A DNA stretch of 64,000 nt, taken from assembly GCA_003551305.1 (NCBI GenBank), contig PUMJ01000017.1, positions 3,232-67,231 on the forward strand, in the 5' to 3' direction. Positions within the stretch are counted from its first letter, which is position 1; every line of letters begins with the position of its first letter. The notes under the pieces are model-generated. The model did no database searches, had not been told where the DNA came from, and worked only from the letters and a program-made list of their open reading frames with translations. The DNA is from Candidatus Brocadiaceae bacterium. Its GTDB lineage: Bacteria > Planctomycetota > Brocadiia > SM23-32. Shown piece after piece: positions 14,404 to 37,000 of this stretch. The position numbers were made by a program, and so were the translations under genes.

Positions 14404-14688
14404 TCAGGTTCGTTCGCGGAAGGGGCATTCGTCGCTTCCACGGACGGGGCGCCTGTCGGCGAACGCCGGTCCTTCCGCCCGCTGCCTGCGGGCCAGGGCG
14501 GCGGACGGCAGGGTGCAGTCCTTCAGGGCGTTGCACTGCACGCAGACTTCTGCGGCGGCGGGGGCCGGCCCGCCGCCGCCCCCGCGCCAGGCGGAATGCA
14601 GCACCAGCCCGCCCAGCAGCCCGCCAGTCGCCCAGCGGGCGCAGCGCCTGAGGAACTCGCGCCGTTTCAGGTCCTGTTCGCGGCTCAT
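14404..14688 (-). CDS. Small Tat-signal Cys-containing protein (hypothetical redox partner)
   Basis: RREFLRR twin-arginine motif and h-region; mature part has CVQCNALKDC...ECP. ATG overlaps the upstream stop (ATGA). Confidence 0.4.
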   Translation of the reverse strand: MSREQDLKRREFLRRCARWATGGLLGGLVLHSAWRGGGGGPAPAAAEVCVQCNALKDCTLPSAALARRQRAEGPAFADRRPVRGSDECPFRERT

Positions 14689-16524: not shown

Positions 16525-16525
16525 C

Positions 16526-17941: not shown

Positions 17942-18084
17942 GGCGCCTCGCGGGACCGAAAGGGGAACGGAAACTCCGGAACCGCCCGTCCTGGCGCGCA
18001 GGGCGGCCCTCAACCGGTCGCATGTCGAACCTCGGATACAATGTCTTCTCATTCAACATATGGTACTCTCTGCCTCTTCAGGCG

Positions 18085-19251: not shown

Positions 19252-19252
19252 T

Positions 19253-22200
19253 TTACTCTGAACGCAGCGCCGACAAAAGCTCGCGCCGCACGGAACCGGC
19301 CGCGGCGGCCGCACACGAGACCAGGCCGACGGCGAAACACGCCGCCAGAACCGCCACGAGCGAAGCCCACCGGACGTCCGCCACGTCGGAGGCCAGGTGC
19401 GGAGCGACGGCCACCAGGGCGCTCACCGAGCCTAACGCCAGCCCCAGTGTCAGCAGCAGGGCGTTCTCCAGCGTCACGGCGGCCACGATGCGCCGGCGCG
19501 GGATGCCGACGGCCAGCATCAGGGCGAACTCCGCGCGCCGCTCGACCACGCCGCGCAACAGCACCGTCACCAGCCCCAGCGTGCCGAGCAACAGCCCCAG
19601 CCCGCCCAGCGTCTGAAAGGTGCCCAGGTAGGTGTTCTGCACGCCGGCGAAACGCGCCAGCAGCTCGCCGGTCTCCAGCACCTCGACGCCCATCTCGCCC
19701 AGCCCGTTGCGCAACGCGGCCGCCACGGCTTCGGTCTCGCCCGGCGGCGTCTCCACCAGGAAGTAGCGGTAGCCCGATTCGCTGCCGAAGTGCCGCACGA
19801 AGTGACGTTCCGCCACGAGCGCCTCGCTCTGGAAGATAGTGTTGGCCAGCAGGCCGACCAGTTCCATGCGGGCTTCTTCGCCGTGGGCGGCCGGCGCGGT
19901 CAGCAAGTCCCCCACGCCCTTGTGGAGGATCCAGCGCGCGCTGGCGGCGTCCGCGAAGGCGGGCAGGGCGCCCCCGGCCGCGTCGGGGTCGCGTCGAAGC
20001 AGGCGCCAGGGCCGGCCGGCCTCCTCGTCTCCCAGGCTCACGTGCTCGGCGAAGCCGAAGCCGCCGCGCTCGACCACCTGCTCCGGCACGCCCAGCACGC
20101 GCGGCACCGAGGGCCTTTGCACGTTCAGACAGCTTATGTCCTCCCCCTCGCTCATGCGGAACTGGTAGATTTCGGCCCGGGCGATCGCCTCCGACTCCTC
20201 CTCCGTCAGCCCGACCCGCTCGCGGCCCTGGGGGGTGGACAGGTCGGCGTGGATGCCGACGCTGCTGCGCGCCACCAGGGTAAAGCCGCCCGCGCCGGAG
20301 GCCCGGTCACGCACGTCCACGCGGCGCATGTCGCGCCGGTTGACAGCCACGGAGACGATCATGAAGCTGGCGGCCGCCAGCAGACCGGCGCTCAGCAGGC
20401 TGCGCACGCGGTTGCGCCGGGCGCCGCGCCAGGCCAGCCTCAGCAGGCCGGGCGCCGCGTGCCGGCCCGGGCCGCCCGGCCGCAGGGCGAGCGCCGTCAC
20501 AGCCAGCGCGCCCACCAGCAGCAATGCCCCGATGCCGAAGAAAGCGCCCGTCGTCGGCACCACCGGCAGCAGCGTGCTCAGCACCAGCAGGGCGGCCGCA
20601 CCGAGCCCGGCCAGACCCGCCACCCACGCCGCCCGCAAGCGGCGCGCCGGCCGCGTTGCCGGGGGCGCATCGCGCTCCGCCTGCCAGCCCGCCAGCAGCC
20701 GTGCGGCCGACGACCTGCGCAGCAGACGGATGCCCCACCAGATGGCGAGGGCCGCCACCGCCAGGCCGCCCAGGAAGCCGATGAACAGGCTCAGTGGCGT
20801 AACGTGCAGCTCGAACGGCATCTGCCCGGCCGCCGGCTCCCACCAGGTGTGGAGACCCAGGATGATAAGGCGCGCGTAGCCGACCCCGGCCGGCGCCCCG
20901 ACGGCGCCCCCCGCCAGGGCCACCAGGCCGGCCTCGGCGGCCAGCGGCGCCGCCGTCCTCCGCCCGGGCAGGCCCACCGCCAGCATGATGCCGAGCTGGC
21001 CGGCGCGCCTCTCGACGTTCAGCCGCAGCATCAGCCCCAGCAGCATCGCGGCCGCCGCCACCAGGAACATGCTCATGGAGAGGAACAGCATCCCGAAGTC
21101 CGTGGAGCCCCGCGCCGCTGCCAGCGCCTGCTGCCGCACGGACCGGAACGCCAGCCCGTGCGCGGCCGGGTCCAGTTCGGCCAGCAGGGCGCGCCGATAG
21201 CGCCCGGCAAAGCCGGCATCAGCCCCTTGCGGCCGGGCCGCCAGCACGGACGTGACCCAGTCCTCCCCGATGCGGGCGGAGCGCCAGATGCCGCGCATCG
21301 CCTCGGGAGCGACGAACGCCTTGGGCGTGGCGCGGTGTTCGTCCCAGTAGTCCTCGTCCCGGGCCCTCACCCGCGAGAGGTCCACGGGGAAGGGCGGGTC
21401 CCACGCGCCGATGGTGTCCACATCGGTGATGCCCTCGAAGAACGGCACGAGGTCAGGGTCCGCCGCCGCCCCCCGCATGGGCACGACGCCGGCCACTTCG
21501 AACGTCATGCTCCCGGTCGTCATAGCGCCGCCGCGGCCGCGCACGTAGTAGGTCATCTCGACGGCGTCCCCGGGCGAGGCGCCCAGGTCATCGGCGGCCC
21601 AGTCGTTCAGCAGGACCTGGTCCGCCCCCAGGTCGGGGGAGGGCGAGCCGTCGGTCAGGACCAGCCCGCCGGCCGCGCGGGCGGCCTCCGGCTCCAGGGC
21701 CGCCACGATGGAGTAAGGGACGGAGCCGTCCTCTGCGCCGACCAGGCGAAGGGTGTTGGCCAGGTAAACGGAGGCCGCACCGGCCGCTATGCCCTCCGCT
21801 TCGGCCGCCGCGCGGGCGGCCCCGGCGGCGCGTGCGGAGAGCACCATGCGGGCGCTCTGCAGGGCCAGGTAGGCGCGGCCTTCCGGTTCTTCCAGGCGCA
21901 GGCCGTAGTCCTCCAGTTGCGCCTGCCGCCGCAGGACCTCTCGCAGGAGGGCGTCCCCGTCAGGCAAAGGGCGGTCGGGCGAAGAGGCGACCAGGAGGGC
22001 GTTGGCGCGGCCGGGCTGTTCCAGTTGCCGGGCCAGCCACTCCCGCTCGACGAAGAGGTTGTGCGGGTGGGGGCGGTCCCCCTGCAGGCTGAACCGGCCC
22101 ATACCCTCCGGGGGCAGCACCTGCCCGACGGTGACCGACAGCGTGCGCAGCGTGCGTGCGCGGCTCTGGTGCGAGAAGACGGTATCCCCCGGCGCCATGC

Positions 22201-22696
22201 CCTCTCGCCCCACGCTGACGAACAGCGTGTCGCCTTCGCGCAGGTCGAGTTCTTCGGCCAGGGCGGCGCTGAGGGCCGCGTTTCGCCCGCTCGGGGCGTC
22301 CCGCGGGCCGCCTTCGCCAAGGTCCCAGAACTCCGGCGGCACTCCCAGCAGGTTCACGCGCGGCGTCGCCCTCTGCTCATCGGCCGTGCGCGCACTGCCC
22401 CCCAGCATCAGCGCGCTGACCGCCCCGGAGAAGGCGTCGTCGAAGCCCGGCTCATCGGCCAGCTCGTCTGCGATCTCGCGGGCCAGTTCAGCCCGGAAGA
22501 AGCCGTCCGTCACCAGCGCGTGCTCGACGCGGCCCAGCCGCTGCAGGGCGAGGTCGCGCAGGCTGCCCTGCACGCTGTCCCCCACCAGCAGCGAACCGAC
22601 CAGCACGGCCACGGCCGTCGCCGTGCCGGCCAGCGCCGCCAGGTTCGAGCGCCGGTAGTAGGCCAGGCTCCGCAGTGTCAGGCGCAGGATGTTCAC
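19253..22696 (-). CDS. ABC transporter permease with two FtsX-like domains (MacB/YbbP-type)
   Basis: 1147 aa. Two sets of 4-TM FtsX modules separated by large periplasmic domains; N-terminal LRSLAYYRRSNLAALAGTATAVAVLVG motif. GTG start. Confidence 0.75.
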   Translation of the reverse strand: MNILRLTLRSLAYYRRSNLAALAGTATAVAVLVGSLLVGDSVQGSLRDLALQRLGRVEHALVTDGFFRAELAREIADELADEPGFDDAFSGAVSALMLGGSARTADEQRATPRVNLLGVPPEFWDLGEGGPRDAPSGRNAALSAALAEELDLREGDTLFVSVGREGMAPGDTVFSHQSRARTLRTLSVTVGQVLPPEGMGRFSLQGDRPHPHNLFVEREWLARQLEQPGRANALLVASSPDRPLPDGDALLREVLRRQAQLEDYGLRLEEPEGRAYLALQSARMVLSARAAGAARAAAEAEGIAAGAASVYLANTLRLVGAEDGSVPYSIVAALEPEAARAAGGLVLTDGSPSPDLGADQVLLNDWAADDLGASPGDAVEMTYYVRGRGGAMTTGSMTFEVAGVVPMRGAAADPDLVPFFEGITDVDTIGAWDPPFPVDLSRVRARDEDYWDEHRATPKAFVAPEAMRGIWRSARIGEDWVTSVLAARPQGADAGFAGRYRRALLAELDPAAHGLAFRSVRQQALAAARGSTDFGMLFLSMSMFLVAAAAMLLGLMLRLNVERRAGQLGIMLAVGLPGRRTAAPLAAEAGLVALAGGAVGAPAGVGYARLIILGLHTWWEPAAGQMPFELHVTPLSLFIGFLGGLAVAALAIWWGIRLLRRSSAARLLAGWQAERDAPPATRPARRLRAAWVAGLAGLGAAALLVLSTLLPVVPTTGAFFGIGALLLVGALAVTALALRPGGPGRHAAPGLLRLAWRGARRNRVRSLLSAGLLAAASFMIVSVAVNRRDMRRVDVRDRASGAGGFTLVARSSVGIHADLSTPQGRERVGLTEEESEAIARAEIYQFRMSEGEDISCLNVQRPSVPRVLGVPEQVVERGGFGFAEHVSLGDEEAGRPWRLLRRDPDAAGGALPAFADAASARWILHKGVGDLLTAPAAHGEEARMELVGLLANTIFQSEALVAERHFVRHFGSESGYRYFLVETPPGETEAVAAALRNGLGEMGVEVLETGELLARFAGVQNTYLGTFQTLGGLGLLLGTLGLVTVLLRGVVERRAEFALMLAVGIPRRRIVAAVTLENALLLTLGLALGSVSALVAVAPHLASDVADVRWASLVAVLAACFAVGLVSCAAAAAGSVRRELLSALRSE

Positions 22697-22826
22697 CTGT
22701 CAGGCTCCATGGGGCGTTCGGTTCATGTTCTTGCTCGCGGCGTCAGGTTGCTCATTTTCCGTTGTTCGTTGCTCGTGGGCGCTCCGGCCTTCCGGGGCCT
22801 CGGGGCCCACTTCCGCCGGGCCCTCC

Positions 22827-23516
22827 TCATGGTTCGCCGTCGTTGCGGGGGTGGAGGGCGCCGTCGCGCAGCTCGTGGACGTCGCCGAACCGCTCGGCCA
22901 GTTCGGGGTCGTGCGTGGCCACCACCAGCATCACGTCCCGCTCGGCGATCATGCCCTCGAACAGGTCGGCCATGCGACGGCCGGTCTCGCTGTCCAGGTT
23001 ACCGGTCGGCTCGTCGGCCAGCAGCAGGACGGGCTCGTTGATCATGGCGCGGGCGGTGGCCACCCTCTGGCGCTCCCCGCCGGAGAGGGCTGCCGGGAAG
23101 TGGTCCATCCTCTCGGCCAGGCCGACGGCTTCCAGCAACTCCTCGCCGCGCGCGAGCGCCGCCCGGCGTTCCTCCGCCCCGGCGCCCAGGGTGGGCAGCA
23201 GCACGTTCTCCAGCGCGGTGCACTGCGGCAGCAGGTGGTGGTCCTGGAAGATGAAGCCTATCTCGCTGTTGCGCAGCCGGGCCAGTTCGCGCTCGTCCAG
23301 GCCGGCCAGGTCCCGGCCGTTCAGCTGCACGTTGCCAGCCGTAGGAGCGTCCAGCGTGCCGATGATGTTCAGCAGCGTGCTCTTGCCGGAGCCCGACGGG
23401 CCGACCACCGCCATGGACTCCCCGGGCCGCAGGGTAAAGCTGACGTCGCGCAGCACCAGCAGCGTTGTCTCGCCCGTGGGATACTCCTTCCGCAGCCCTG
23501 TCAGTTCAAGCGTCAT
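22827..23516 (-). CDS. ABC transporter ATP-binding protein (LolD/MacB ATPase family)
   Basis: Walker A GPSGSGKST, signature LSGGERQRVA, Walker B LLLADEPTGNLD, H-loop ATHD. Confidence 0.85.
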   Translation of the reverse strand: MTLELTGLRKEYPTGETTLLVLRDVSFTLRPGESMAVVGPSGSGKSTLLNIIGTLDAPTAGNVQLNGRDLAGLDERELARLRNSEIGFIFQDHHLLPQCTALENVLLPTLGAGAEERRAALARGEELLEAVGLAERMDHFPAALSGGERQRVATARAMINEPVLLLADEPTGNLDSETGRRMADLFEGMIAERDVMLVVATHDPELAERFGDVHELRDGALHPRNDGEP

Positions 23517-23876
23517 GCAGCCCTCCCAACCCCCGGAGAAGCCCTCCTGCCGTCATAGCTCTGTGCGTCCCAGCCACGCCCGCGGTGAACACACACGGCA
23601 ACGACGTCGCTCTTCCGCACGCTCCCGACACTTGGGATTATACCTGCCCGCCGCCGGTATGACTACCGGGGCGCTCGCCCTGTTGGCCCCCCAATCCTCT
23701 CTTGCTGGCGCCGAAAACGGACCTCAAGTGGATTGTGTGAGTCGTCCGTAGTGCTGCGCTGGTGAGCCGTCGCCCGGTACCGTATACTGAATCGGGGAGT
23801 ATCCGGGTTACTGCGCGCGGGGGCCGGACGTGTCGCCGGCACCGAAAGCGCCTGTCTTTTTCGTCGGAGTACGCCG

Positions 23877-25142
23877 ATGGGTCTGTTGAAGCGGGCTGCA
23901 CGTGTCGTTATCGCGCTTGCCGTGGTGTTGCTGGTGACGGGGTTCCAGGAGGCGAAAGGGGAACCGTGGAACCAGTTCCTCGGCCCGCGCCGGGACGGCG
24001 TGGCGCGCGAGGCCGAGGGCCTGCCCCGGCAATATCCGGAAGGCGCGCAGGTGCGCTGGCAGCAGGAGATGGGCCGCGGCTTCGGAGGGGCGGCCATCTG
24101 GGAGGACTCGGTGCTGGTGGTGGACCGCGTGCGGGGCGAGAGCGACATAATCCGGCGGCTTCGTCTCTCCGACGGCAGCGAGGTCTGGCGGCACGAGTAC
24201 GAGGCCCGGCGCAGGGTGGCCCATCCCGGCAGCCGCTCAACGCCCGCCACGGACGGGCAACTGGTCTACACCGTCGGCACCCTCGGCCACATCAAGGCCC
24301 TGCGGTTCGAGGACGGAGAGGTCGTCTGGCGACGACACCTGCTGGAGGACTGGGACGCGAACCTGCCCCAGTGGGCCGTCTCCCAGTCGCCCCTGCTGAT
24401 GGGCAACCTGCTCATCGTCGCCCCCTGGGGCAGCGAGGCCGCCGTCGTCGCCTACGACAAACAGACCGGCGAAGTGGCCTGGACCACCCCCAATCGCGCC
24501 GGAAGAGACCTGGATTACCAGTCCCCCGTGCCGATGAACGTGGACGGGCGCTGGACAGTGGTCGCCAGCGGCCGTCACGGCTATACCATCGGCGTTGACG
24601 CCGCCACCGGCCGCGAACTCTGGTCATACGACGGCTACAACAGTTCCTGGCACATCCCCAGCCCCACCGTGCTTCCTGGCAATCGCGTGCTCATCACCGG
24701 CGGCTACCGCGCCGGCAGCGCCTTGCTGCAGGTGGGCCGCAGCGGCCAGGGCGGCTACGCCGTCCGCGAACTCTGGCAGAACCGCAATCTCGGCTCCCAG
24801 ATGGCCCAGGCCCTCTACTGGGACGGACACATCTACGGCAACAGCACCGACACCCGCGGCGGCCTGCGCTGCCTGAACCTGGACGGCGAGGTCGTGTGGG
24901 ACTCGGCCGACGACGGCCGCACATTCGAGCGCGGATTCCTGCTTATAGCCGACGGTCTCGCCTTCAGCATCAACGGCCGTGACGGCCAGATTGTCGTCGC
25001 GCGCGCGACGCCCGATGGCTTCCAGGACCTGGGCACCATAGACGTGCTCGGCGGCAACGAGGTCTGGGCGGCCATCGCCTACAGCGACGGCGTGCTGGTG
25101 GTGCGCGACCACAGCCAGCTGGTCTGCCTCGACCTCAGGTGA
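23877..25142 (+). CDS. PQQ-like beta-propeller repeat protein (secreted)
   Basis: Signal peptide; blades SDGSEVWRHEY, EDGEVVWRRH, QTGEVAWTT, ATGRELWSY. Confidence 0.65.
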   Translation: MGLLKRAARVVIALAVVLLVTGFQEAKGEPWNQFLGPRRDGVAREAEGLPRQYPEGAQVRWQQEMGRGFGGAAIWEDSVLVVDRVRGESDIIRRLRLSDGSEVWRHEYEARRRVAHPGSRSTPATDGQLVYTVGTLGHIKALRFEDGEVVWRRHLLEDWDANLPQWAVSQSPLLMGNLLIVAPWGSEAAVVAYDKQTGEVAWTTPNRAGRDLDYQSPVPMNVDGRWTVVASGRHGYTIGVDAATGRELWSYDGYNSSWHIPSPTVLPGNRVLITGGYRAGSALLQVGRSGQGGYAVRELWQNRNLGSQMAQALYWDGHIYGNSTDTRGGLRCLNLDGEVVWDSADDGRTFERGFLLIADGLAFSINGRDGQIVVARATPDGFQDLGTIDVLGGNEVWAAIAYSDGVLVVRDHSQLVCLDLR

Positions 25143-25342
25143 AGCGACCCTGCGGGCCGTCCGCTCACCTGCCTTCCCCGGCGTTGCCCGCGGGCTGTGT
25201 CTGAGCCGCCGCAGGTGCGCCCGCCCTAACGGCGGGCTGCTGGGGCGGCGGGACTCCCATTGCCTTTGCGCCCGGAGACGAGGGGTTGTAGAATCCCGGC
25301 ATTCCATTCCCGGCGCTTTCAGCCTCACGGGGGTCCGACACG

Positions 25343-26374
25343 ATGACTTCAGGGCCGATGACGGCGGTTTTTCTGGAAGGGGTTCACAAGGTTGTTCAAG
25401 CGGAGGTGCCCGTCCCGCAGCCGGGCCCCCGCGATGTGCTCGTCAGGATGAAAGCGGTGGGCGTCTGCGGTTCAGACATGCACTACTACGAGCACGGGTG
25501 CATCGGCGACTTCGTCATCGAGCAGCCCCTCATCCTCGGGCACGAATGCGCCGGGGAGGTCGCCGAGGTCGGGCAGGAGGTGACCACGCTTCAGCCCGGC
25601 GACCGGGTGGCGCTGGAGCCGGGCATCCCCTGCCGCCGCTGCGCGCTTTGCCTGGGCGGCCGCTACAACCTCTGCCGCGACGTCGTGTTCATGGGCACCC
25701 CACCGCACCACGGGGCCTTCCGCCAGTATGTCACCTCGCCCGAGGACTTCGCCTATAGGCTGCCGGACGGGGTGAGCGCCGAGGTCGGCGCGACCGTCGA
25801 ACCGCTGGCCGTTGGCATGCACGCCTGCACCCTGACGGGCGTGCAGCCGGGCGAGAGCGTCGCCGTGCTCGGGGCCGGCCCCATCGGCCTGCTGGCCGTC
25901 GCAGCGGCCTCTGCCGCCGGGGCGGCCCACATAACGGCCGTGGACATGGTGCCGCGGAGGCTCGAGTTCGCCGGCAGGATGGGCGCCGACCGCGCCGTGG
26001 ACGCGCGCGAGGCCGACGTGTCCTCGGAACTGGCGGACAGCGCCGACGTGGTGCTCGACTGCGCGGGGGTGGAGCAGACGCTCGCCCAGTCGTTCAACCT
26101 GGCCCGGCCCGGCGGGCGGGTGGGCTGGATCGGCATGGCGGCCAGGACGGCCGCCGTGCCCCTGATTGAGGCCCAGGCCAAGGAGCTGACCATCGTGCCG
26201 GTGTTCCGCTATGCGAACGTGTACGGGCGGGCGGTGAGCCTGCTGGCGTCCGGCCGCATAGACACGGCGCCGCTTGTGACCCACAGGTTCCGCTTCCCGG
26301 AGGTGGAAGAGGCGTTGAAGTTCGCCTCCGAGAACCGGGAGGTCGCCCTCAAGACGATGGTCGTCTTCGACTGA
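25343..26374 (+). CDS. Zinc-dependent alcohol dehydrogenase (sorbitol/L-iditol/threonine dehydrogenase family)
   Basis: GVCGSDMHYY and GHECAGEV zinc motifs; structural-zinc Cys cluster CRRCALCLGGRYNLC; GAGPIGL Rossmann motif. Confidence 0.8.
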   Translation: MTSGPMTAVFLEGVHKVVQAEVPVPQPGPRDVLVRMKAVGVCGSDMHYYEHGCIGDFVIEQPLILGHECAGEVAEVGQEVTTLQPGDRVALEPGIPCRRCALCLGGRYNLCRDVVFMGTPPHHGAFRQYVTSPEDFAYRLPDGVSAEVGATVEPLAVGMHACTLTGVQPGESVAVLGAGPIGLLAVAAASAAGAAHITAVDMVPRRLEFAGRMGADRAVDAREADVSSELADSADVVLDCAGVEQTLAQSFNLARPGGRVGWIGMAARTAAVPLIEAQAKELTIVPVFRYANVYGRAVSLLASGRIDTAPLVTHRFRFPEVEEALKFASENREVALKTMVVFD

Positions 26375-26422
26375 GGCGCGCCGAGAACGGCTCCATGCGC
26401 CCTGAGAGCGCAGGTCTTGCGC

Positions 26423-26453
26423 TTGACAGCGCCCTGCGTGATGGTGTTATTAT
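26423..26453 (+). promoter_or_regulatory. Near-consensus sigma70 promoter (TTGACA, 18-19 nt spacer, TTATTAT/TATTAT) for the 61-aa gene
   Basis: TTGACA at 26423-26428 and TATTAT at 26448-26453, in a locally AT-rich stretch. AAAGGAGG RBS at 26489-26496. Confidence 0.5.
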
Positions 26454-26504
26454 GGCGGACGATTTGGCGGCAACGTCACTTTTTTCTCAAAGGAGGTCTG
26501 GTTC

Positions 26505-26690
26505 ATGGCCGCAGAGAAGGAGATGTTGATTGTCGGGACGAAGGTGAAGAACTACATCAAGGAAAAGGACCTGATGAGTTCCTCTGACGTGCTGGACGCC
26601 GTGAATGACGCCGTGTATGAGCTGCTGGACCGCGCGGCCGAGCGTGCCAAAGGCAACGGGAGGAAGACCGTCCAGGGCCGGGACGTGTAG
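26505..26690 (+). CDS. Small histone-fold DNA-binding protein (bacterial histone HBb/Bd0055-like, DUF1931)
   Basis: 61 aa: MAAEKEMLIVGTKVKNYIKEKDLMSSSDVLDAVNDAVYELLDRAAERAKGNGRKTVQGRDV. By recollection this resembles Bdellovibrio Bd0055 (VVTSKVKKLIKEKGQM...AKADGRKTV...RDI). Predicted helix - loop - long helix - RKTV loop. Strong promoter, strong RBS, intrinsic terminator and low local GC. Confidence 0.5.
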   Translation: MAAEKEMLIVGTKVKNYIKEKDLMSSSDVLDAVNDAVYELLDRAAERAKGNGRKTVQGRDV

Positions 26691-26729
26691 GCAGCGTTCT
26701 GATATCTGGAAACAGTCCGGCCAGAAAAG

Positions 26730-26761
26730 AAAAGCCCCGCCCGGAAAGGCGGGGCTTTTTC
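26730..26761. terminator. Bidirectional rho-independent terminator (8-bp GC stem, A-tract 5', T-tract 3')
   Basis: AAAAGAAAA GCCCCGCC cggaaa GGCGGGGC TTTTT, between convergent genes ending at 26690 (+) and 26783 (-). Confidence 0.8.
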
Positions 26762-26782
26762 TCCGTACGGGCCGTGGCCGTC

Positions 26783-27901
26783 TCAGTCAAGTTCCTCGAA
26801 GGCCGCTATTGTGCCCTGCCGGTTGGCCACGTAAAATACCGCCCGCTCGGGGTCGCCGGAGACCAGGCAGTCGGCCGGCAGCACGTCTTTCCAAAGTTCC
26901 TCCCCCCGGTCGGCGCTCACGGCGGCTATGCCGTTGTCGTCAGTGCGCAGGTAGAGCCGCTCACGGCCGGCCGTCACCAGTTCTGTAGCCCCCTCATAGC
27001 TCCACAGGACCTCTCGCTCGTCTTCCAGCGACACGCAATAGGCCGCGGGTTTGCTGGTGAAGACGAGCAACCTGTCCTCCACCACACGGGGCCTGCCCAC
27101 GATGGGTGCCCCCAAGGACTTCTGCCACCTCAGGTCGCCGAACTCTGCGCCCAGGGCATATAAGTCGCCGAGGTTATCCCCCACGTAAACGCGGCCCTCA
27201 TGCACGGCTATGCCGCTGTTGAGCCGGGCGGGTCGGCGCGGTTCCCAGCGCCACAGCTCGAGTCCGTCCTCCGCTTGCACACAGATGACCTCTGAGGCCG
27301 AAGCGAAGACCCGGCCCCCCACCATGGTGGGCTGATGCCAGATGGGCCCGCGGATGGAGCTGAGCCAGATCCGGCGGTAATCGGGGCGCGACAGCCGGGT
27401 CAGCAGGCCGTTGCCGGTGGGCACGATGATGGTATCCCTCCAGAGCCGCGGCGGGGCGAACGGCGGGGCTGCCAGCCGATGGCCTTCCCCCACCTGGCCG
27501 GTGGCGGGGTCGAAGGGATAGAGCCGGCTGGCGGAGACGACCAGCATCCGGTCGCCGTCGGCTATGGGGCTGAATTTCAGGCCGCGAGCGAAGACCTGCA
27601 TGTTTTTCCACGTGCCGCGCCGGGCGTCCAGCACGTGCACCTCGCCGGTCGGTGTCTCGGCCACCAGCCAACCGTCCACCGGGTAGAGCGCCTTGAGGCG
27701 GGGCTCGGAGATGCGGCCCAGCTCGGCCACCCACAACGGCTTCAGCCCCTGGTCCTCCAGGTCAAACACCGGGTTGGCCGGGTCGAGCATCGAGCTCTCA
27801 GAAGCGTCGGCAGGCGGGGCGAGGCCGGCACCCAGGGACATCAGCAGGGCAGCGCCCATCAGAAGCAGACACGCGGGCCAACGGCGCGACGCGATCCTCA
27901 T
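26783..27901 (-). CDS. PQQ-like beta-propeller repeat protein (secreted)
   Basis: ATG at 27901; signal peptide ACLLLMGAALLMSLGAGLA; blades EDGLELWRW, FGDLRWQK, DEREVLWSY, DRGEELWKD. Confidence 0.6.
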   Translation of the reverse strand: MRIASRRWPACLLLMGAALLMSLGAGLAPPADASESSMLDPANPVFDLEDQGLKPLWVAELGRISEPRLKALYPVDGWLVAETPTGEVHVLDARRGTWKNMQVFARGLKFSPIADGDRMLVVSASRLYPFDPATGQVGEGHRLAAPPFAPPRLWRDTIIVPTGNGLLTRLSRPDYRRIWLSSIRGPIWHQPTMVGGRVFASASEVICVQAEDGLELWRWEPRRPARLNSGIAVHEGRVYVGDNLGDLYALGAEFGDLRWQKSLGAPIVGRPRVVEDRLLVFTSKPAAYCVSLEDEREVLWSYEGATELVTAGRERLYLRTDDNGIAAVSADRGEELWKDVLPADCLVSGDPERAVFYVANRQGTIAAFEELD

Positions 27902-28104
27902 AACCTGAACCTCCGGAGCGGAACTCGGAATCAGTGGCGATGCCCTCCCACGCGCCACCGACGTCGGGCCGCGCAGAGGACGGATTTTCTTCCCCAGAAC
28001 TGTAACCACTGCTACAGGTTGTGTCAAGGGCAAAAGCGGGTTCGACGCGGCCGGGCGCTACCGCTAAACTGAAAAGAAGGGTCTGGAGGGGAAGAAAACT
28101 CGCC

Positions 28105-28596
28105 ATGGAACGGCCACCGGAGTTCTTCTGCGACGCGATGCTGGGCGGGCTGGCCCGCTGGCTGCGCGCCGCCGGTTACCCGGCCCGCTTCGACGTCCAC
28201 ATCGCCGACGGGGAACTGGTCCGCCGCTGCCTGGAGGAAGGCTACGTCCTGTTGAGCAGTGATTCCGGCCTGCTGGAACGCTACGCCCTGGCCGAGGGGC
28301 TGGTGGAGCACGTCTTTGTGCCCCTGGGGCTGAGGCCGGTCCAGCAGCTTGCCCACGTGATGGGTGAACTGGACCTGCCCCTGCGCCCGGCCCGGTGCAT
28401 GGATTGCGGGGAAGAGCTGCAGGAGGTCTGCCTGCGCCAGGTGCGCCACCGCGTGCCCCCGGGGGTGCAGCGCCGCATGGAGGACTTCTTCCGCTGCGCC
28501 GGCTGCGGCAAAGTCTACTGGCACGGTACCCACTGGGAACGCATCCGCCGGCAGCTTCAGCGCGCCGCCCCGGGGGGCGGAGACGGGCCGGGCTGA
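28105..28596 (+). CDS. Mut7-C RNase-domain protein (PIN-like plus C-terminal zinc ribbon; DUF82 family)
   Basis: ATG at 28105 with GGAGGGGAAG SD. N-terminal FFCDAMLGGLARWLRAAGY and C-terminal CMDCGEEL...CAGCGKVYWHGTHWERI are typical of the Mut7-C family. Confidence 0.6.
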   Translation: MERPPEFFCDAMLGGLARWLRAAGYPARFDVHIADGELVRRCLEEGYVLLSSDSGLLERYALAEGLVEHVFVPLGLRPVQQLAHVMGELDLPLRPARCMDCGEELQEVCLRQVRHRVPPGVQRRMEDFFRCAGCGKVYWHGTHWERIRRQLQRAAPGGGDGPG

Positions 28597-28832
28597 GGCG
28601 GACCTGCGCCGCTTGCGAAAGATGCTTGAGCACCGCCCGAAAGCAGCCCGTAATGGTCGAGAAAGAGGGGTGGCCGGCTGATTCACTTGTGGAAGCGGGC
28701 GCCATGCCCGATAATACCGCTTGACTTGAAAACACTTGTTACCAGCAGGGCCGGGTGAGGCGCCCGGCGCATCGGCGCCCTGAGCCCTCGGGCCGGGCCG
28801 GCGCCCCCCGCGGTTCTGCTGCTTTGTTGCCA

Positions 28833-30212
28833 ATGAAAGACATGGGCGGCGCAGAAAAGTTACCTGAACTCCAGGACCCGGACGGGGAGTCCCTGCCCTC
28901 CGATCCCGCCGAGCTCCGGCGCAGACTGCTTGAGTTGACCCGTCAGTTGCGCAGGGCGCAGGCCCGCATCCAGGCCCTCGAGACCGGCATCAAGGAGTCT
29001 CCGGCCTCTGTGACGCCCCTGGCCCGGGGCTCCGACAACGAAATGCGCCTGCTCTCCGAGCAGCTCGAACGCCAGGCCATGTTGCTGGAACGCGACGAGC
29101 AGGTGGCGCGCGAGCTGCAGCGGAGCCTCCGCCCCGTGATAGACGAGCAACTGGAGGGGATCAGGTTCGCCCTCCAGACCCGCCCGGGCACTCGCGTGGG
29201 CGGCGACTTCTACGATATCATCAACCTTTCGGATAACTTCGTGGCCTTCCTCATCGCCGACGTCTCCGGCTACGGGTTGCCCGCCGCCGTCATCATGGCC
29301 ACCGGCCGGCTCGCCTTCCGCACCTACGCCGCCAACGAACTGCGCCCGCGCACCATTATGGAGAACGTCAACCGGGCCATGCTGCGCAGCACCCTGGCCG
29401 GCCACTACATGACGGCCTTCCTCGGGGTGCTCGACACGGAGCTGCTCACCCTTCAGTACGTCAACGCCTCCCACTGCTGCCCGTTCGTCGTGCGGGACGG
29501 GGAGGCCGTACCCCTCGACACCGAGGGGCTGTTCGTGGGCATGTTCGAGGACCCGCAGTACGAGGAGAAGGGAATGCAGCTGGAGCAGCATGACCGCCTT
29601 TTCCTCTACACCGACGGGGTGCTCAGCAGCTTTAGTGCCGCCGACCGGCGCGAGTCGGAAAAGCGACTGGAGAAGCACCTGATGGAAAACGGCCACCTGC
29701 CCATCGAGAGCCTCGTCGAGCAGCTTGCCGGCATGATGGAGGAACCGGAAGACGACGTGGCCCTGCTGGGGGCCGAGATATTGCTGGAGAAGGCCCAGCG
29801 CAAGACCATCGTCATCTCCAGCCTCCCCAGCGAACTGCCCCACGTCGAGAGCGCTATCCTGCCGGTGCTGGAGAACAAGGGCTACGGCGAACGCAACATC
29901 TTCGCCGTCAAGCTCGCCCTCGAAGAGGCCGTTATCAACGCCATCAAGCACGGCAACGAGCTGGACGACACCAAGAAAGTAGCGGTCAGTTTCTTCGTTG
30001 ACGACGACCGCGCCATGATCTCGGTGGGCGACGAAGGGGAAGGGTTCGACCCCGACGAGGTGCCGGACCCGACGGCCGAGGAGAACCTGCTGGCCTCCTC
30101 CGGCCGGGGGCTCGCCCTCATCCGGGCCTACATGGATGAGATCCGCTTCAACGAAGACGGCACCGAGATAACCATGATAAAACATGCGCCCTGGGCCGCC
30201 GCAAGCCGTTAG
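28833..30212 (+). CDS. Fused PP2C-type (SpoIIE/RsbU-like) phosphatase and RsbW-like HATPase anti-sigma-factor kinase
   Basis: N-terminal coiled-coil; PP2C motifs GGDFYD and ADVSGYG...LLYTDG; C-terminal GHKL ATPase (EAVINAIKHG, GDEGEGFD, GRGLALI). Confidence 0.75.
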   Translation: MKDMGGAEKLPELQDPDGESLPSDPAELRRRLLELTRQLRRAQARIQALETGIKESPASVTPLARGSDNEMRLLSEQLERQAMLLERDEQVARELQRSLRPVIDEQLEGIRFALQTRPGTRVGGDFYDIINLSDNFVAFLIADVSGYGLPAAVIMATGRLAFRTYAANELRPRTIMENVNRAMLRSTLAGHYMTAFLGVLDTELLTLQYVNASHCCPFVVRDGEAVPLDTEGLFVGMFEDPQYEEKGMQLEQHDRLFLYTDGVLSSFSAADRRESEKRLEKHLMENGHLPIESLVEQLAGMMEEPEDDVALLGAEILLEKAQRKTIVISSLPSELPHVESAILPVLENKGYGERNIFAVKLALEEAVINAIKHGNELDDTKKVAVSFFVDDDRAMISVGDEGEGFDPDEVPDPTAEENLLASSGRGLALIRAYMDEIRFNEDGTEITMIKHAPWAAASR

Positions 30213-30247
30213 CCCGGGCTCTGTTGCTCTTCAGTGCGAGTGAAGCC

Positions 30248-30607
30248 ATGCGCGACGACACCGCTACCGGCGGGGCCGCAATCGAGAAAGAGTTCAGGGA
30301 CGATGTCTGCGTCCTGCGTCTTTCCGGTCAGATGCGCGAGATGGGCGCCGACGCCCTGCGCGAGGAACTCGACCAGGTACTCGAGGGCGGCACCTTCAAG
30401 CTCGTCTTCGACATGGGCGAAGTTGACTTCATCAGCTCCACCGGTCTGGGCCAGATGATGCGCGCCTACCGCACCGCCACCGGCAACGACGGCTTCGTCC
30501 GCGTGGTCAACCCCCAGCCCCTCGTCGAAGAGGTGTTCCGGTTCACCAAGCTGCACACCCTCATCGGCATATTCGACACCGTCGAAGAGGCTCTGGCCGC
30601 CGATTGA
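30248..30607 (+). CDS. STAS-domain anti-sigma-factor antagonist (RsbV/SpoIIAA-like)
   Basis: STAS fold with the conserved phosphorylatable Ser/Thr region (DFISSTGLG). ATG at 30248; the TTG at 30224 is an alternative start. Confidence 0.7.
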   Translation: MRDDTATGGAAIEKEFRDDVCVLRLSGQMREMGADALREELDQVLEGGTFKLVFDMGEVDFISSTGLGQMMRAYRTATGNDGFVRVVNPQPLVEEVFRFTKLHTLIGIFDTVEEALAAD

Positions 30608-30740
30608 CCGGCTGCGAAGGCAGGCTCCGCGCCGCCACCGCCCTCCCCGGGTACATCTCGCCTGTCCGCCGGCCCCGATGCCTGCCCTGCGCAGACCCAT
30701 CTGAAGACGACCGCCCGTGACGCGGCGCATCTGGCGCCAG

Positions 30741-32351
30741 TCACGTGACTTCGAACGATGCGATCTCGTCGAAAGACAAATCGTGCCGTTTCAGGTACTT
30801 GCGAAGCCGGTCGGCGTCATTCGTCGAGCTCTTCTCGCGGCGGGAGACGGCGAACAGTGTGCGCCCCGCCTCCGACAGGCTGGAGGATGAGCGGCAGACG
30901 CGGATGACCTCGGCAAGCTGCACCCGGTCGAACAGGTCCATCTCCTCGACCCGCTGCTCGCCGATGAGGGCGACGAGCTGATCGAACCGCGGTCCCTGGT
31001 TGCTGTGGTCCTTCCAGGATTCGCGCAGCCTCTCGATTTCTTTCGCCACGTTGCTTGCCGTGATCAGGCCCTCAACGGCCAGAGTGGCCATGCGGACCAC
31101 GGCGCCGTTCAGGTCTCGAAAGTTAGCCCGCCAGGCCGCCCCCGGTGAGATCGCAAAGTCCAGGAACCTCTCTCGGGCCCCCGGCTCAAACCTGACCCGC
31201 TCGCCGGTCCTCTCGGCGAAGGCTTCAAGCTCGTAGGCGAGGTTCGGCTCGATATCTTCCGGCCGCTCTCGCAGGCCGGGGAGTCGAAAAGTCCACAACC
31301 CGATGCGGGCGAGCAGGTCTTCACGGAACTGCCCGTCCCGCACCCGTGCCGGCAGGTCCCGGTGGGTTGCACAGATCAGGTGGAAGTCGCTCTCCACTTC
31401 ATGGTCCGCGCCGAGGGGCAGGAAGCGTTTCTCTTCCAGGGCGCGCAGAAGCATGGCCTGCTCGTCGGGCCCCAGGTCGGCCACTTCGTCCAGAAAGAGC
31501 AGGCCCCCGTCGGCCGCGCGCAGCAGGCCGTCGCGGTCCCGGGCGGCCCCCGTATAAGCACCCTTCACGTGTCCGAAGAGCGCGGACTGCGCAGCGTCAC
31601 CTCGCAGAGTTGAGCAGTTTACCTCCACCAGCGGGCCGCTAAGGTGGCCGTGCTTTCTTTTCAGCTCGTAGATCCGCCGGGCCAGAAGCGTCTTGCCCGC
31701 GCCCGTGGGCCCCAGCAGCACGATGGGGGCGCTCGAGCGCACACAGACCCGCTCGATGCCCTCGATGAGCCGGTTGAAGTCCGCGTTCCGGGTCTCGATC
31801 CCCGCTTTCAGGAAGGCCAGGTCTTCCCTGGTCTTGCGGCGAATGCGGCTCGAGATCGCCTCATAGCGCGCCTGCTCCAGGTCAATGCATCGGAAACTCC
31901 CGGCCGGCCCTTGCCCCGATGAAGGCGGAATCGTCTGAAGCAGGCGGGCCGGCATGAACCTCGAGGCGCAAAGGGTGAAAAGACAGCTCTGGATAACGTG
32001 GGTGCCGGTCGTGATGTGAACGAGGTAGTCCTCGTTCTCCAGGTCGAACGGGTATTCCTCGGCAAACTCCAACAGGGCTGCGTAGACCACGGCGAAGTCC
32101 CACGGATCGCTCAAGTCGACCGTCACCTTCCGCACGCACGTGCCGGGTGAGACCCGCTCGATATCCCGGGCGATCCGGTCAGCCAGGTCACCAAACCGTG
32201 GTTCGTGGAGGAGTTCCAGGCGTTTCAGCGGCAGCGCATCGTGCCGACAGGCACTGACGGTCGGCCGCCATACCCCCCAGCGGTCGGGGCCCGAGTGCGC
32301 GTCGAGAGTCGTGCCGAGGAAGCCGATCAGCACCGTGGAGGGCCGCCGCAT
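30741..32351 (-). CDS. rtcR: Sigma54-dependent transcriptional activator RtcR (N-terminal CARF domain, AAA+ sigma54-interaction domain)
   Basis: N-terminus VLIGFLGTTLDAHSGPDRWGVWRPTVSACRHDALPLKRLELLH...ITTGTHVIQSCLFTL...PARLLQTIPP matches, by recollection, E. coli RtcR (FGFVGTVLD...RWSKWRPT...ITTGTHVAQICWFLL...PARLIQSSPP). Walker A GPTGAGKT and the GAFTGA-region analogue HVKGAYTGA. ATG at 32351. Confidence 0.8.
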   Translation of the reverse strand: MRRPSTVLIGFLGTTLDAHSGPDRWGVWRPTVSACRHDALPLKRLELLHEPRFGDLADRIARDIERVSPGTCVRKVTVDLSDPWDFAVVYAALLEFAEEYPFDLENEDYLVHITTGTHVIQSCLFTLCASRFMPARLLQTIPPSSGQGPAGSFRCIDLEQARYEAISSRIRRKTREDLAFLKAGIETRNADFNRLIEGIERVCVRSSAPIVLLGPTGAGKTLLARRIYELKRKHGHLSGPLVEVNCSTLRGDAAQSALFGHVKGAYTGAARDRDGLLRAADGGLLFLDEVADLGPDEQAMLLRALEEKRFLPLGADHEVESDFHLICATHRDLPARVRDGQFREDLLARIGLWTFRLPGLRERPEDIEPNLAYELEAFAERTGERVRFEPGARERFLDFAISPGAAWRANFRDLNGAVVRMATLAVEGLITASNVAKEIERLRESWKDHSNQGPRFDQLVALIGEQRVEEMDLFDRVQLAEVIRVCRSSSSLSEAGRTLFAVSRREKSSTNDADRLRKYLKRHDLSFDEIASFEVT

Positions 32352-32425
32352 TTATATCTCCATATAGATATTTATAGGAGCATATAATAGCAGCGCCCCC
32401 CGGTTCTGTCAAGGCTCCAGGCGAA

Positions 32426-32442
32426 CTGGGAGTCCGCTTGCT
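32426..32442 (+). promoter_or_regulatory. Candidate sigma54 (-24/-12) promoter directed toward rsr
   Basis: cTGGgagtccgcTTGCtg: TGG, 8 nt, TTGC matches TGGCACG-N4-TTGC spacing. Lies between rtcR (activator) and rsr, about 180 nt upstream of the rsr start. Confidence 0.4.
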
Positions 32443-32621
32443 GTATGTGACTTCTTTGTAACATGTTACGAGCGCCGTGTTCGCCGCCGTGAACTGGCGG
32501 CACAGTCATTGCGATAACGCCAGACGCGCCAGTTGGCGCGATGGCTGCCGGAAACGGAGCCGCACCGGAGGGTCCGGCCCGGCAGAACAGAAGGATGTCT
32601 CCTGGTGTGAGGTGGACCACA

Positions 32622-34181
32622 ATGGCGAACCCGGCGCTCTTCCAGACGGCTCGGCCCTCTCCCGCCGCTGATCTTGGGAGCAATGAGGCCGGAGGGATGG
32701 CCTGGCGCCTGCCGCCAAAGCAGGCCCTGGCTCAGCTCGCCGCCACGGGATGTATGAACACGAGCTACTACGCGGACGCGGCCGTACAGTTGCAACAGAC
32801 CCTGGCTCTGGCCTACATGGTCGAGCCGGAATACGTCGCGCGCACAGCGGTCTACTGCCACGAGCGGGGCGGCATGAAGGACATGCCCGCGCTTCTGTGC
32901 GCCGTTCTCTCGGTGCGCTCGGGCGCATTGCTGGAGCGTGTATTCCCGCGGGTGGTTGACAGCACCCGGATGCTGCGCACTTTTGTGCAGATCATGCGCT
33001 CGGGGGTGGTCGGCAGAAGGTCGCTGGGCCGGTTGCCCAAGCGCCTCATACGGCAGTGGCTGAGGTCGCGCGACGACGCGTCGCTTTTTCGGGGTTCGGT
33101 GGGCAATTCCCCGTCGCTGGCCGACATCGTGAAGATGGTCCATCCCCGTCCCCACACCCCGAGTCGGGAAGCCCTGTACGGGTATCTTATTGACCGGCCG
33201 GTTGACGACACCGCGCTGCCGGAAATCGTGAAGAGCTACGAGACCTGGAAGGAGAGCCCGAACAAGGAGATTCCAGACGTACCCTTCCAGATGCTGGCGT
33301 CGATGGAAGCCGGCCGGCGGGTGTGGGCGTCCGTGGCGCGGAATGCCCCCTGGCAGACACTGCGGATGAACCTCAACACATTTGCCCGGCACGGCGTCTT
33401 CAAGGTCTGGGGGATGACAGACCTGGTGGCTCGACGGCTCCGCGACCCGGAGAGCTTGCGCCGGGCTCGTCCTTTTCCTTACCAGTCCATGATCGCCCGC
33501 CTGGAAGCCGCTAAGGGTGTGCCGCGGAGAGTCCTCAAGGCGCTGGAGGATGTTCTGGAAGCTTCCCTGAGCGGTGTTCCGCGCCTGGGAAGGCGTGTGC
33601 GTGTCTGCGTTGACGTCTCGTCGTCAATGTCCAGCTCTCTTACGGGCTTTCGCCGCGGCGCCACCTCAAAGGTGCGGTGCGTGGACGTGGCGGCGCTTCT
33701 CGCCGCGGCGATCCTGCGCCGCAACCCTGAGGCGGAGATCATGCCGTTCAACCATATGGTGATTCGCCTTGCCTGTGATCCGCGCAGGCGCATCCTGGAC
33801 AACGCCGCCCGAATGGCACGTTTCTGCGAAGGGGGCACCGGTTGCAGCCTCCCCCTGGCGGTGCTCAACCAGAGAGCAGCCATGGCTGACATGGTGATCT
33901 ACCTCTCCGACAACCAATCCTGGATGGACGATCCGTGGCAGCCGGGCAAAAGAAACACCAGGCTGATGTGTGAGTGGGATTACTTCCGCCATCGGAATCC
34001 GGATGCGAAGCTGGTGCTGATAGACCTTCAGCCGTATATGACGGTGCAGGCGCCCGATCGAGCCGACATACTGAACGTGGCCGGGTTCTCTGACCAGGTG
34101 TTCGAGCTTCTCCGCCTGTTCGCGGAGGACCGGCTTGACCCCCAGCACTGGGTGGGAGTGATAGAGGCAGTGCAGCTTTAG
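32622..34181 (+). CDS. rsr: Ro60-related protein Rsr (TROVE domain plus C-terminal vWA/MIDAS)
   Basis: Divergent from rtcR. N-terminal ALAQLAATGCMNTSYYADAAVQLQ resembles the Ro60 N-terminus by recollection; C-terminal vWA with DVSSSMSSS (MIDAS DxSxS). ATG at 32622 preceded by GAGGTGG; in-frame ATGs at 32541 and 32595 are alternatives. Confidence 0.7.
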   Translation: MANPALFQTARPSPAADLGSNEAGGMAWRLPPKQALAQLAATGCMNTSYYADAAVQLQQTLALAYMVEPEYVARTAVYCHERGGMKDMPALLCAVLSVRSGALLERVFPRVVDSTRMLRTFVQIMRSGVVGRRSLGRLPKRLIRQWLRSRDDASLFRGSVGNSPSLADIVKMVHPRPHTPSREALYGYLIDRPVDDTALPEIVKSYETWKESPNKEIPDVPFQMLASMEAGRRVWASVARNAPWQTLRMNLNTFARHGVFKVWGMTDLVARRLRDPESLRRARPFPYQSMIARLEAAKGVPRRVLKALEDVLEASLSGVPRLGRRVRVCVDVSSSMSSSLTGFRRGATSKVRCVDVAALLAAAILRRNPEAEIMPFNHMVIRLACDPRRRILDNAARMARFCEGGTGCSLPLAVLNQRAAMADMVIYLSDNQSWMDDPWQPGKRNTRLMCEWDYFRHRNPDAKLVLIDLQPYMTVQAPDRADILNVAGFSDQVFELLRLFAEDRLDPQHWVGVIEAVQL

Positions 34182-34330
34182 GAGCAACGGGCGGAATGCC
34201 GCCGAGACTACATGGGAGACGTCCCGGCACCCCTTGTCCGCCCGTCCTCCTTTCCTTCTCACCCTCCCGGTAAGCCGAAGGGCCCTTTGTCGGTCCGCAA
34301 GCTCCCGCCCGCTGCGGCAGGATTCGCCGC

Positions 34331-35434: not shown

Positions 35435-35818
35435 CGAATTCCCCTGTCTGCCCGAAAGGGGCAATGTATCAGAGACGTTACACCCCCGCAACAGACCTCG
35501 CCGACGGGAGAGCAGCGGCCCCGCCGGCGGCCCCGGTCTTTCCCCGCGCCGGGCGGAGCCGTGGATGTCATCCTGAGTTCGCCGAACGGCGCAGCGAAGA
35601 ATCTCGCCGTTCAGGCGCGCAATGGACTGCGGCGTAGAGGTTCTTCGTCAGGGCTCCGCCTCTCCTCAGAATGACAGCGTTCTTTCCGGCTACACATTGC
35701 TTTTGCAGGTCTCCACAGTTTCGTTGGTCGGTCTTGAACCGGCCCTCGTGCCGTTTCTGCTCGTTCTCGGCGCGCCGCTGCGTTGAGTCGAGGACTACGA
35801 CCGGGAGCGGGCGCTCTA

Positions 35819-35846
35819 ATTGACACCGTTAAGCGCCCCGATATAA
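35819..35846 (+). promoter_or_regulatory. Near-consensus sigma70 promoter upstream of purM (TTGACA, 16 nt spacer, TATAAT)
   Basis: TTGACA at 35819-35824 and TATAAT at 35841-35846. Confidence 0.45.
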
Positions 35847-35910
35847 TAAAGAATCTGGCCTCCAACGGCCGCTGTTCTCGTCCTTTCCCCCGCCCCTTTC
35901 GGGAGCCCCG

Positions 35911-36978: not shown

Positions 36979-37000
36979 ACCCGCTGAGCAGGTGAGCCCG

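Follow-up and report, generated by a model that had tools for sequence, protein, structure and literature searches.

A 64,000-nucleotide stretch of DNA from a Candidatus Brocadiaceae bacterium (GenBank assembly GCA_003551305.1, contig PUMJ01000017.1, positions 3,232 to 67,231; hereafter the window, to which all coordinates refer) carries a gene at 26505..26690 on the forward strand that encodes a 61-amino-acid protein. This protein is almost certainly an α3-truncated histone, and its sequence points to the face-to-face (FtF), HLp-like subtype. The reading preferred here, to which a probability of about 0.7 is given, is that by analogy with characterized relatives it would form a homotetramer that wraps ∼60 bp of DNA and has a role in the nucleoid. 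The open reading frame (ORF) starts with ATG, and no longer in-frame start exists. Its translation is identical to that quoted in an initial annotation, which was made from the sequence without database searches and had proposed a bacterial histone resembling Bd0055 of Bdellovibrio bacteriovorus.

Structure and family of the encoded protein

As described by Schwab et al. (PMC11390915), α3-truncated histones have an α3 of 3 to 4 residues, an α2 shorter than that of nucleosomal histones, and an RKTxxxxD motif. A single-chain AlphaFold2 (AF2) model of the window protein, generated from a 70-sequence alignment, reached a predicted local distance difference test (pLDDT) score of 91.4. It placed α1 at residues 11 to 19, α2 at residues 27 to 50 (24 residues), and α3 as a single turn at residues 58 to 60, matching the order of helix, loop, long helix, RKTV loop, and short helix predicted in the initial annotation. 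The chain ends at residue 61, so that α3 is cut to residues 58 to 60 as the α3-truncated class requires. The RKTxxxxD motif, comprising the L2 loop and the RD clamp, is present as R53-K54-T55...D60 and was invariant in the 70 sequences.

Foldseek searches against the PDB returned HLp first (TM score, 0.88/0.94; root mean square deviation [rmsd], 0.9 Å), then HBb (query-normalized TM score, 0.85 to 0.89) and HTkC (0.82 to 0.85). The top nine matches were all chains of these three proteins, and nucleosomal histones appeared only at E values of 0.06 or higher. Superposition of the AF2 model on HLp, HBb, and HTkC gave query-normalized TM scores of 0.85 to 0.89 and rmsd values of 0.7 to 1.1 Å. Using phmmer, the best PDB sequence matches were 9QT0 (HLp of Leptospira perolatii; E value, 5.6e−12), 8CMP and 8FVX (HBb/Bd0055; E value, about 7e−9), and 9F2C (HTkC; E value, 8.8e−5), and the family profile scored 76.3 bits for HLp, 55.1 bits for HBb, and 46.5 bits for HTkC, followed by archaeal and eukaryotic histones. 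From the modeled fold and the Foldseek matches, the protein was therefore assigned to the α3-truncated histones sensu Schwab et al. (PMC11390915), an assignment that leaves very little doubt. The core of the initial proposal is upheld by the sequence matches to HLp and HBb and by the superpositions: the protein is a bacterial singlet of the histone fold in which both an RKTV loop and an RD clamp are present.

The initial annotation had also placed the protein in the DUF1931 family, and this was not supported. The Pfam DUF1931 model (PF09123) scored 20.5 bits (E value, 6e−4), below its gathering cutoff of 21.8, and the match covered only positions 19 to 53 of a model that describes a doublet over 138 positions; with 61 amino acids and one fold, the window protein is a singlet. 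Two other histone models also scored below their cutoffs, namely Pfam CBFD_NFYB_HMF (PF00808; 15.9 bits, cutoff of 21.4) and NCBIfam archaea_histone (NF043032; 16.2 bits, cutoff of 50).

Sequence features of the face-to-face subtype

The FtF class is defined by a toroidal homotetramer, predicted or measured, that is made up of two dimers; ∼60 bp of DNA is wrapped by HLp (PMC12701072), and HTkC both wraps DNA and hypercompacts it. Histones of the bacterial dimer type (HBb/Bd0055) are DNA benders, and both types occur in Planctomycetota (PMC11390915). As the monomer fold cannot separate the two, four sequence tests were used. In HLp, which is a tetramer in solution, R49, N53, and R55 form a dimer-dimer hydrogen-bond network that is conserved in FtF histones (PMC12701072). 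In HTkC, the opposing C-terminal carboxylate is the salt-bridge partner of R45, and the R45A substitution turns tetramers into dimers (bioRxiv 10.64898/2025.12.06.692711). Two residues of the FtF sequence logo, R48 and N52, which are equivalent to R49 and N53 of HLp, have been described as missing from the bacterial-dimer class (PMC11390915).

The codons for R47 to V61 (26643..26687, forward strand) cover the tetramer triad R47/N51/R53, the L2 loop R53-K54-T55-V56, the RD clamp R53...D60, and the C terminus. The HLp residues R49/N53/R55 aligned with R47/N51/R53 of the window protein, and R45 of HTkC aligned with R47. Residues R47, N51, R53, K54, T55, and D60 were invariant in the 70 sequences. 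The R-N-R triad was found in 69/69 members of the window family, 44/44 Leptospira HLp proteins, 39/40 other HLp-like proteins, and 73/83 distant singlet representatives. All 40 HBb relatives carried S-D-R, N-D-R, or A-D-R, and none had R-N-R.

The window chain ends with D60-V61, one residue past the clamp aspartate (D-x-COOH). Of the family members, 68/69 had the same end, as did 41/44 of the Leptospira proteins and 39/42 of the other HLp-like proteins (the remaining 3 had no motif match), and HBb relatives carried six residues beyond the clamp aspartate (...DIIIDHI) in 120/120 cases. The C-terminal carboxylate of the window protein would thus lie directly after the short α3, positioned as a partner for the interface arginine. 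Independent hidden Markov models (HMMs) built from Leptospira HLp proteins only, from all HLp-like proteins, and from the HBb family scored the window protein at 69.2, 78.5, and 47.1 bits, respectively, and HLp ranked above HBb in both the single-sequence and the family-profile scores.

Overall, all four tests pointed to FtF, and this subtype is considered highly probable from the sequence. The triad, the D-x-COOH end, and the HMM scores (69.2 to 78.5 versus 47.1 bits) contradict the initial "Bd0055-like" assignment, which was therefore right at the level of the superfamily and wrong at that of the subtype.

Predicted tetramer and DNA contacts

By analogy with HLp and HTkC, two head-to-tail dimers of the window protein would close into a toroidal homotetramer, in which R47, together with N51 and R53, would bond to the V61 carboxylate end of the opposing dimer. 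The DNA backbone would be bound, irrespective of its sequence, along a belt of basic and polar residues (K13, K15, K19, S25, K54, and T55). Each tetramer could then carry ∼60 bp of DNA around it, and the protein would act as a nucleoid organizer.

The HLp residues in contact with DNA are A13, S14, K15, K17, K21, T27, G29, T56, and T57 (PMC12701072). In the alignment, these mapped to G11, T12, K13, K15, K19, S25, S27, K54, and T55 of the window protein, and the HLp contacts K15, K17, K21, and T57 were conserved as K13, K15, K19, and T55. The three lysines, which correspond to backbone contacts in HLp, are encoded within the α1 codons K13 to K19 (26541..26561, forward strand). K13 and K15 were invariant in the 70 sequences, and K19 was conserved in at least 90% of them. 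Charge is segregated along the window protein, with +3 in α1, +2 in L2/α3, and −3 in α2.

The gene and its low-GC surroundings

The initial annotation had noted a low-GC island, and the ORF does sit where the GC content of the window is lowest. The GC minima for 150-bp and 300-bp segments both start at 26441, with values of 0.48 and 0.557, respectively, versus a mean of 0.687 across the 64 kb. GC content at third codon positions (GC3) was 0.855 in the ORF and 0.81 to 0.91 in four neighboring genes; at codon positions 1 and 2, it was 0.46 versus ∼0.60. The dip is thus explained by a protein composition rich in Lys, Asp, Glu, and Asn together with two intergenic regions, and given the host-like GC3, it is no sign of foreign DNA.

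The ratio of nonsynonymous to synonymous substitution rates (dN/dS) was 0.03 to 0.20 against 13 orthologues (Nei-Gojobori method). The gene is real, native, strongly constrained, and vertically inherited; a spurious ORF is ruled out by the dN/dS values and homology. At the gene locus, Rfam searches gave only subthreshold matches, caused by the terminator hairpin described below. No Rfam family reached its gathering threshold and no tRNA gene was found in the whole window (1..64000).

Transcription and translation signals

A perfect-consensus −35 hexamer, TTGACA, lies at 26423..26428 on the forward strand, followed by a −10 region, TGT-TATTAT (26445..26453, forward strand), in which TATTAT at 26448 to 26453 matches five of the six consensus positions. 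The TG at 26445 to 26446, one base 5′ of the −10 hexamer, is in the style of an extended −10 promoter. The spacer between the hexamers is 19 nucleotides (nt). The initial annotation had given the promoter as TTGACA-N18/19-TATTAT; both hexamers and the longer spacer stand, and the 18-nt alternative falls away. A generic σ70 scan, which allows spacers of 16 to 18 nt only, reported no promoter, having missed it because of the 19-nt spacer. In a dedicated pattern search, TTGACA-N19-TATNAT occurred once in the window versus 0.00 times expected (100 shuffles).

At the equivalent −35 place in the 25 closest orthologous loci, exact TTGACA was found in 23 and TTGACT in 2, and a TAT(C/T/A)AT hexamer followed 19 nt later in 16, the same geometry as in the window. 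An alignment of 10 upstream sequences (A2; mean identity, 58%) contained the invariant blocks C-TTGACA-G, T-nn-TAT-n-AT, and GGAGG. In loci L002, L010, and L012, the better fit is an overlapping −10 hexamer with a spacer of 16 nt, which in the window is the degenerate TGTTAT. Directly 5′ of the −35, most orthologous loci carry a T-rich element with the consensus gATTTTGCCC (A2 columns 1 to 18), of which the window has a weaker version (ggtcttgcgc) at 26405 to 26422. This element could be UP-element-like or a regulator-binding site.

The 5′ untranslated region, its start placed from the −10 position, would span ∼45 nt (26460..26504, forward strand) and is U-rich before the ribosome-binding site (RBS). 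The leader appears unstructured, as the fold of 26460 to 26510 was no stabler than that of shuffled sequence (z = 0.14). A hairpin at 26465 to 26478, flagged as terminator-like by a scan, was considered as an attenuator and rejected as not significant on the same value. The Shine-Dalgarno sequence AAAGGAGG reported in the initial annotation was confirmed at 26489..26496 on the forward strand, 8 nt 5′ of the ATG.

Downstream of the gene, a bidirectional intrinsic terminator at 26730..26759 lies between convergent genes. It is built on a perfect 12-bp stem, AAAAGCCCCGCC-cggaaa-GGCGGGGCTTTT, flanked by A and T runs, and its folding energies were −25.2 kcal/mol on the forward strand and −29.1 kcal/mol on the reverse strand (z of about −3), in line with what had been claimed for it initially. 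In 13/25 of the closest loci, a GC-rich hairpin and, after it, a T tract were present 3′ of the gene, and nine of these loci had a GCCCCGC core. Together, the signals support a functional, probably strong transcription unit, predicted to be monocistronic with its own terminator. From the conserved strong −35 sequence, the RBS, the unstructured leader, and the terminator, high (constitutive) expression is plausible.

Relatives and gene order

A word-indexed search identified 69 homologues of 55 to 80 amino acids, of which almost all came from metagenome bins of Planctomycetota and many are labeled "histone H3/H4" by JGI. An exhaustive search of 1.84 billion representatives returned 530 relatives with an E value of ≤1e−3, and 79 loci encoding relatives were found among one-genome-per-species contigs. 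The closest locus, L001, is from a Candidatus Brocadiia metagenome-assembled genome (MAG) and shares 95% amino acid and 76 to 81% nucleotide identity. It is followed by ∼24 MAGs labeled Planctomycetota or "Brocadiaceae." Further relatives came from Scalindua, Phycisphaerae, and Myxococcota-like MAGs, and the most distant, at 38 to 53% identity, from DPANN and other archaea. A search for contigs encoding the exact protein gave no record; a cluster look-up identified it as already public (NCBI/Logan, on an 80,309-bp contig), and the L001 orthologue, MFO7958864.1, which belongs to the same 90% cluster, goes under "DUF1931 family protein [Candidatus Brocadiia bacterium]."

The gene order in the window is zinc alcohol dehydrogenase (ADH), histone, a convergent PQQ/BamB-like propeller gene, a Mut7-C RNase gene, and a SpoIIE/HATPase gene, and all or most of these neighbors were kept in most of loci L001 to L019. 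The most persistent linkage of the histone gene is with the downstream PQQ propeller gene, which was present in 23/25 of the closest loci. Two PQQ_2/BamB-like β-propeller genes, at 23877..25142 (forward strand) and 26783..28033 (reverse strand), bracket the ADH-histone pair; no functional link is apparent. Downstream lie a gene for a Mut7-C RNase domain protein (28021..28596, forward strand; 127.6 bits) and one for a protein in which an HATPase_c_2 anti-sigma-like kinase domain is joined to a SpoIIE phosphatase (28755..30212, forward strand), the order of which is conserved in most close relatives. Neither an HU gene, for which a probe was used, nor a second histone copy was found within the 64-kb window.

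Some relatives differ from the window protein in cysteine content or length. An N-terminal M-x-C-G-x-C-G tail with a CxxC motif, absent from the window protein, was found in 19/69 close homologues (for example, L010 at 2986 to 3183 and L016 at 249 to 446), and the relatives at L023 and L024 have up to five core cysteines. Cysteines are unusual in histones, and those of these relatives might serve in metal binding or redox-sensitive cross-linking. Additionally, many relatives from the exhaustive search (P0070 to P0218) are 117 to 150 amino acids long, with a few above 200, and have two matched stretches. Such relatives are tandem doublets, occurring naturally, of the short α3-type fold and appear distinct from the DUF1931 doublets.

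Weighing of alternative explanations

Several observations weigh against a DNA-wrapping homotetramer with a nucleoid role. The window protein has a net charge of 0 and a pI of 6.19 in a family with a median charge of +3, in which only 2/69 members are at or below 0, and its DNA affinity could therefore be lower; the median of the Leptospira orthologue set is likewise 0 (pI 6.24), and HLp itself has a charge of +2 (pI 9.05). Of the six interface residues in HLp, three are replaced (S52 by G50, T61 by R59, and F63 by V61). The 19-nt promoter spacer is outside the usual σ70 range of 16 to 18 nt, and two overlapping −10 hexamers are possible. No chromosome-related genes flank the histone gene, unlike the SMC neighborhood of Leptospira hlp. 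Finally, a literature search for planctomycete histone expression data found none, and according to Hocher et al., expression profiles of Planctomycetota histones do not exist.

The protein could instead be a strict homodimer of the Bd0055/HBb type that bends DNA sharply, as HU or IHF does, and forms no tetramer. It shares with HBb 41 to 42% identity (E value, about 7e−9; query-normalized TM score, 0.85 to 0.89), the α1 lysines, and the RKTV...RD motif; bacterial dimer histones are found in Planctomycetota too (PMC11390915), and the window protein departs from HLp at half of the interface positions. This explanation is nevertheless unlikely, because R47 and N51 stand where the HBb family has S, N, or A and D in 40/40 sequences, because the six-residue C-terminal tail of 120/120 HBb relatives is missing, and because the HBb profile scored 22 to 31 bits below the HLp profiles. 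A related question is whether a DNA-binding histone of this kind acts only locally or conditionally, in a stress- or growth-phase-specific manner or as a regulator, and is no major global chromatin component. The strong −35, strong RBS, and unstructured leader conserved across the clade, the strong purifying selection and phylogenetic persistence, and the rank of characterized FtF homologues among the most abundant proteins all speak against so limited a role and make it rather improbable. It does draw support from the net charge of 0, the lack of chromosome-maintenance neighbors, the caution of Schwab et al. (PMC11390915) that prokaryotic "histones" need not all be global organizers, and the deletion of HTkC, which is nonlethal and changed only 45 genes.

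That the protein binds no DNA at all and works, in the manner of DUF1931 pseudodimers or TAF-like folds, as a scaffold between proteins is very unlikely. DUF1931 was the top, although subthreshold, Pfam match and gives the NCBI name of an orthologue, the pI is 6.19, and DUF1931 pseudodimers lack DNA-binding residues; yet the window protein is a singlet that matched 35 of 138 DUF1931 positions below the cutoff, its DNA-contact lysines and R-K-T loop are invariant, and the charges of α1 (+3) and L2/α3 (+2) fit a basic DNA-binding belt. Its position at the GC minimum of the window, the existence of a "phage histone" class among α3 histones, and the archaeal DPANN relatives at 38 to 53% identity could be taken to mark the AT-rich island as a recent arrival from a mobile element or phage. 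Against this, GC3 is 0.855, as in host genes, the same genes flank the histone in most of the closest species-level genomes, and no integrase, transposase, or tRNA lies nearby. Recent horizontal transfer is effectively ruled out by GC3 and synteny and was given only the slightest weight; an ancient archaeal transfer into the ancestor of the clade is conceivable. The homotetramer that wraps ∼60 bp of DNA remains the preferred reading.

An RtcR- and Ro60-like gene pair elsewhere in the window

Further downstream, a gene for an RtcR-type σ54 activator (30741..32351, reverse strand; Pfam RtcR, 222.8 bits, plus Sigma54_activat) is divergent from a gene for a Ro60-like protein (32541..34181, forward strand; vWA_Ro60, 62.8 bits). 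Among the GC dips of the window, the one in the intergenic region of this pair (∼32351 to 32540) is the second lowest. Y RNAs usually, and RtcB often, accompany Ro genes in bacteria. Neither a Y RNA (Rfam) nor RtcB was found beside the pair, and the ORF after the Ro60-like gene (34334..35674) had no Pfam domain. A Y-like RNA that escaped recognition could lie at 34182 to 34330.

Implications for planctomycete chromatin

The initial annotation had regarded the gene as noteworthy because bacterial histones are rare, which was overstated. Published surveys place FtF histones predominantly in Spirochaetota, Planctomycetota, and Bdellovibrionota as well as Myxococcota, phylogenetic persistence of histones in Planctomycetota has been noted in earlier work, and this phylum is already listed as a main home (PMC11390915, PMC12701072, PMC10627809). 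The gene reported here is no new kind of system and is a sound, unsurprising addition to the catalogued planctomycete FtF histones. No experimentally characterized planctomycete histone was found in the searchable literature.

To our knowledge, only HBb and HLp have been characterized both structurally and functionally among bacterial histones, and neither is planctomycete. The window protein is a clean candidate with which FtF biochemistry could be extended to a third bacterial lineage. The subtype sets the biochemistry to be expected, a tetramer wrapping ∼60 bp versus a DNA-bending dimer, and decides the right control mutant, which is R47A. With its mapped promoter, RBS, terminator, and synteny and its near-neutral charge, the candidate offers a test of the generality of FtF wrapping in a high-GC bacterium and a means of asking whether nucleoid compaction in planctomycetes involves histones. 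Planctomycetota have long been noted for condensed nucleoids.

A more speculative and improbable view is that the FtF histone is the principal chromatin protein of its Brocadiia-related clade, where it would dominate over HU or take its place, as happens in Leptospira. An unusually spaced, clade-invariant promoter would drive its expression, and the CxxC tail (19/69) and the cysteine-rich cores of some relatives might allow redox- or metal-responsive tetramer stacking or DNA compaction. If true, this would amount to a regulated histone-based chromatin system in Planctomycetota.

Comparison with characterized histone-fold proteins

HLp of L. perolatii (PDB 9QT0/9QT1/9QT2), together with its L. 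interrogans orthologue, is the best match in both sequence and structure, at 45 to 46% identity. The two share their length class, the truncated α2 and α3, the RD clamp, the D-x-COOH end, the tetramer triad, and the α1 lysine DNA contacts, and the near-neutral charge of the window protein resembles the median of the Leptospira orthologues. HLp comes from another phylum and has S52, T61, and F63 in place of G50, R59, and V61 and an RTTV rather than RKTV L2 loop. The genomic neighbors differ as well, being SMC, MAP, and DUF350 genes for HLp and ADH and PQQ propeller genes for the window protein. HLp has been shown to form tetramers, to wrap DNA, and to be abundant, properties that are predicted for the window protein. 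HTkC of Thermococcus kodakarensis (PDB 9F2C) is likewise an α3-truncated member of the FtF class (TM score, 0.85), with R45 equivalent to R47 and an RKT loop. It differs in its identity of only 33 to 36%, in having E in place of N51, and in being archaeal and coexisting with nucleosomal histones.

HBb/Bd0055 of B. bacteriovorus (PDB 8CMP, 8FVX, and 9EZZ) resembles the window protein in its short histone fold (41 to 42% identity), the SK/VK lysines in α1, and the GRKTV...RD motif. It carries S and D for R47 and N51 and a six-residue C-terminal extension and is a strict DNA-bending dimer. The DUF1931 (PF09123) pseudodimers, such as Aq_328 of Aquifex aeolicus (1R4V) and the Thermus thermophilus protein (1WWI), belong to the same histone-fold superfamily, and in NCBI and UniProt, HLp-type singlets go by the name DUF1931. 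These proteins are doublets of ∼138 positions without DNA-binding residues, whereas the window protein is a singlet that keeps those residues. Archaeal nucleosomal histones (HMfB and HTkA/B) share the histone fold, the RKT loop, and the RD clamp (weak profile matches; E values, 1e−3 to 0.6) and differ in their full-length α3, longer α2, and assembly into hypernucleosome polymers.

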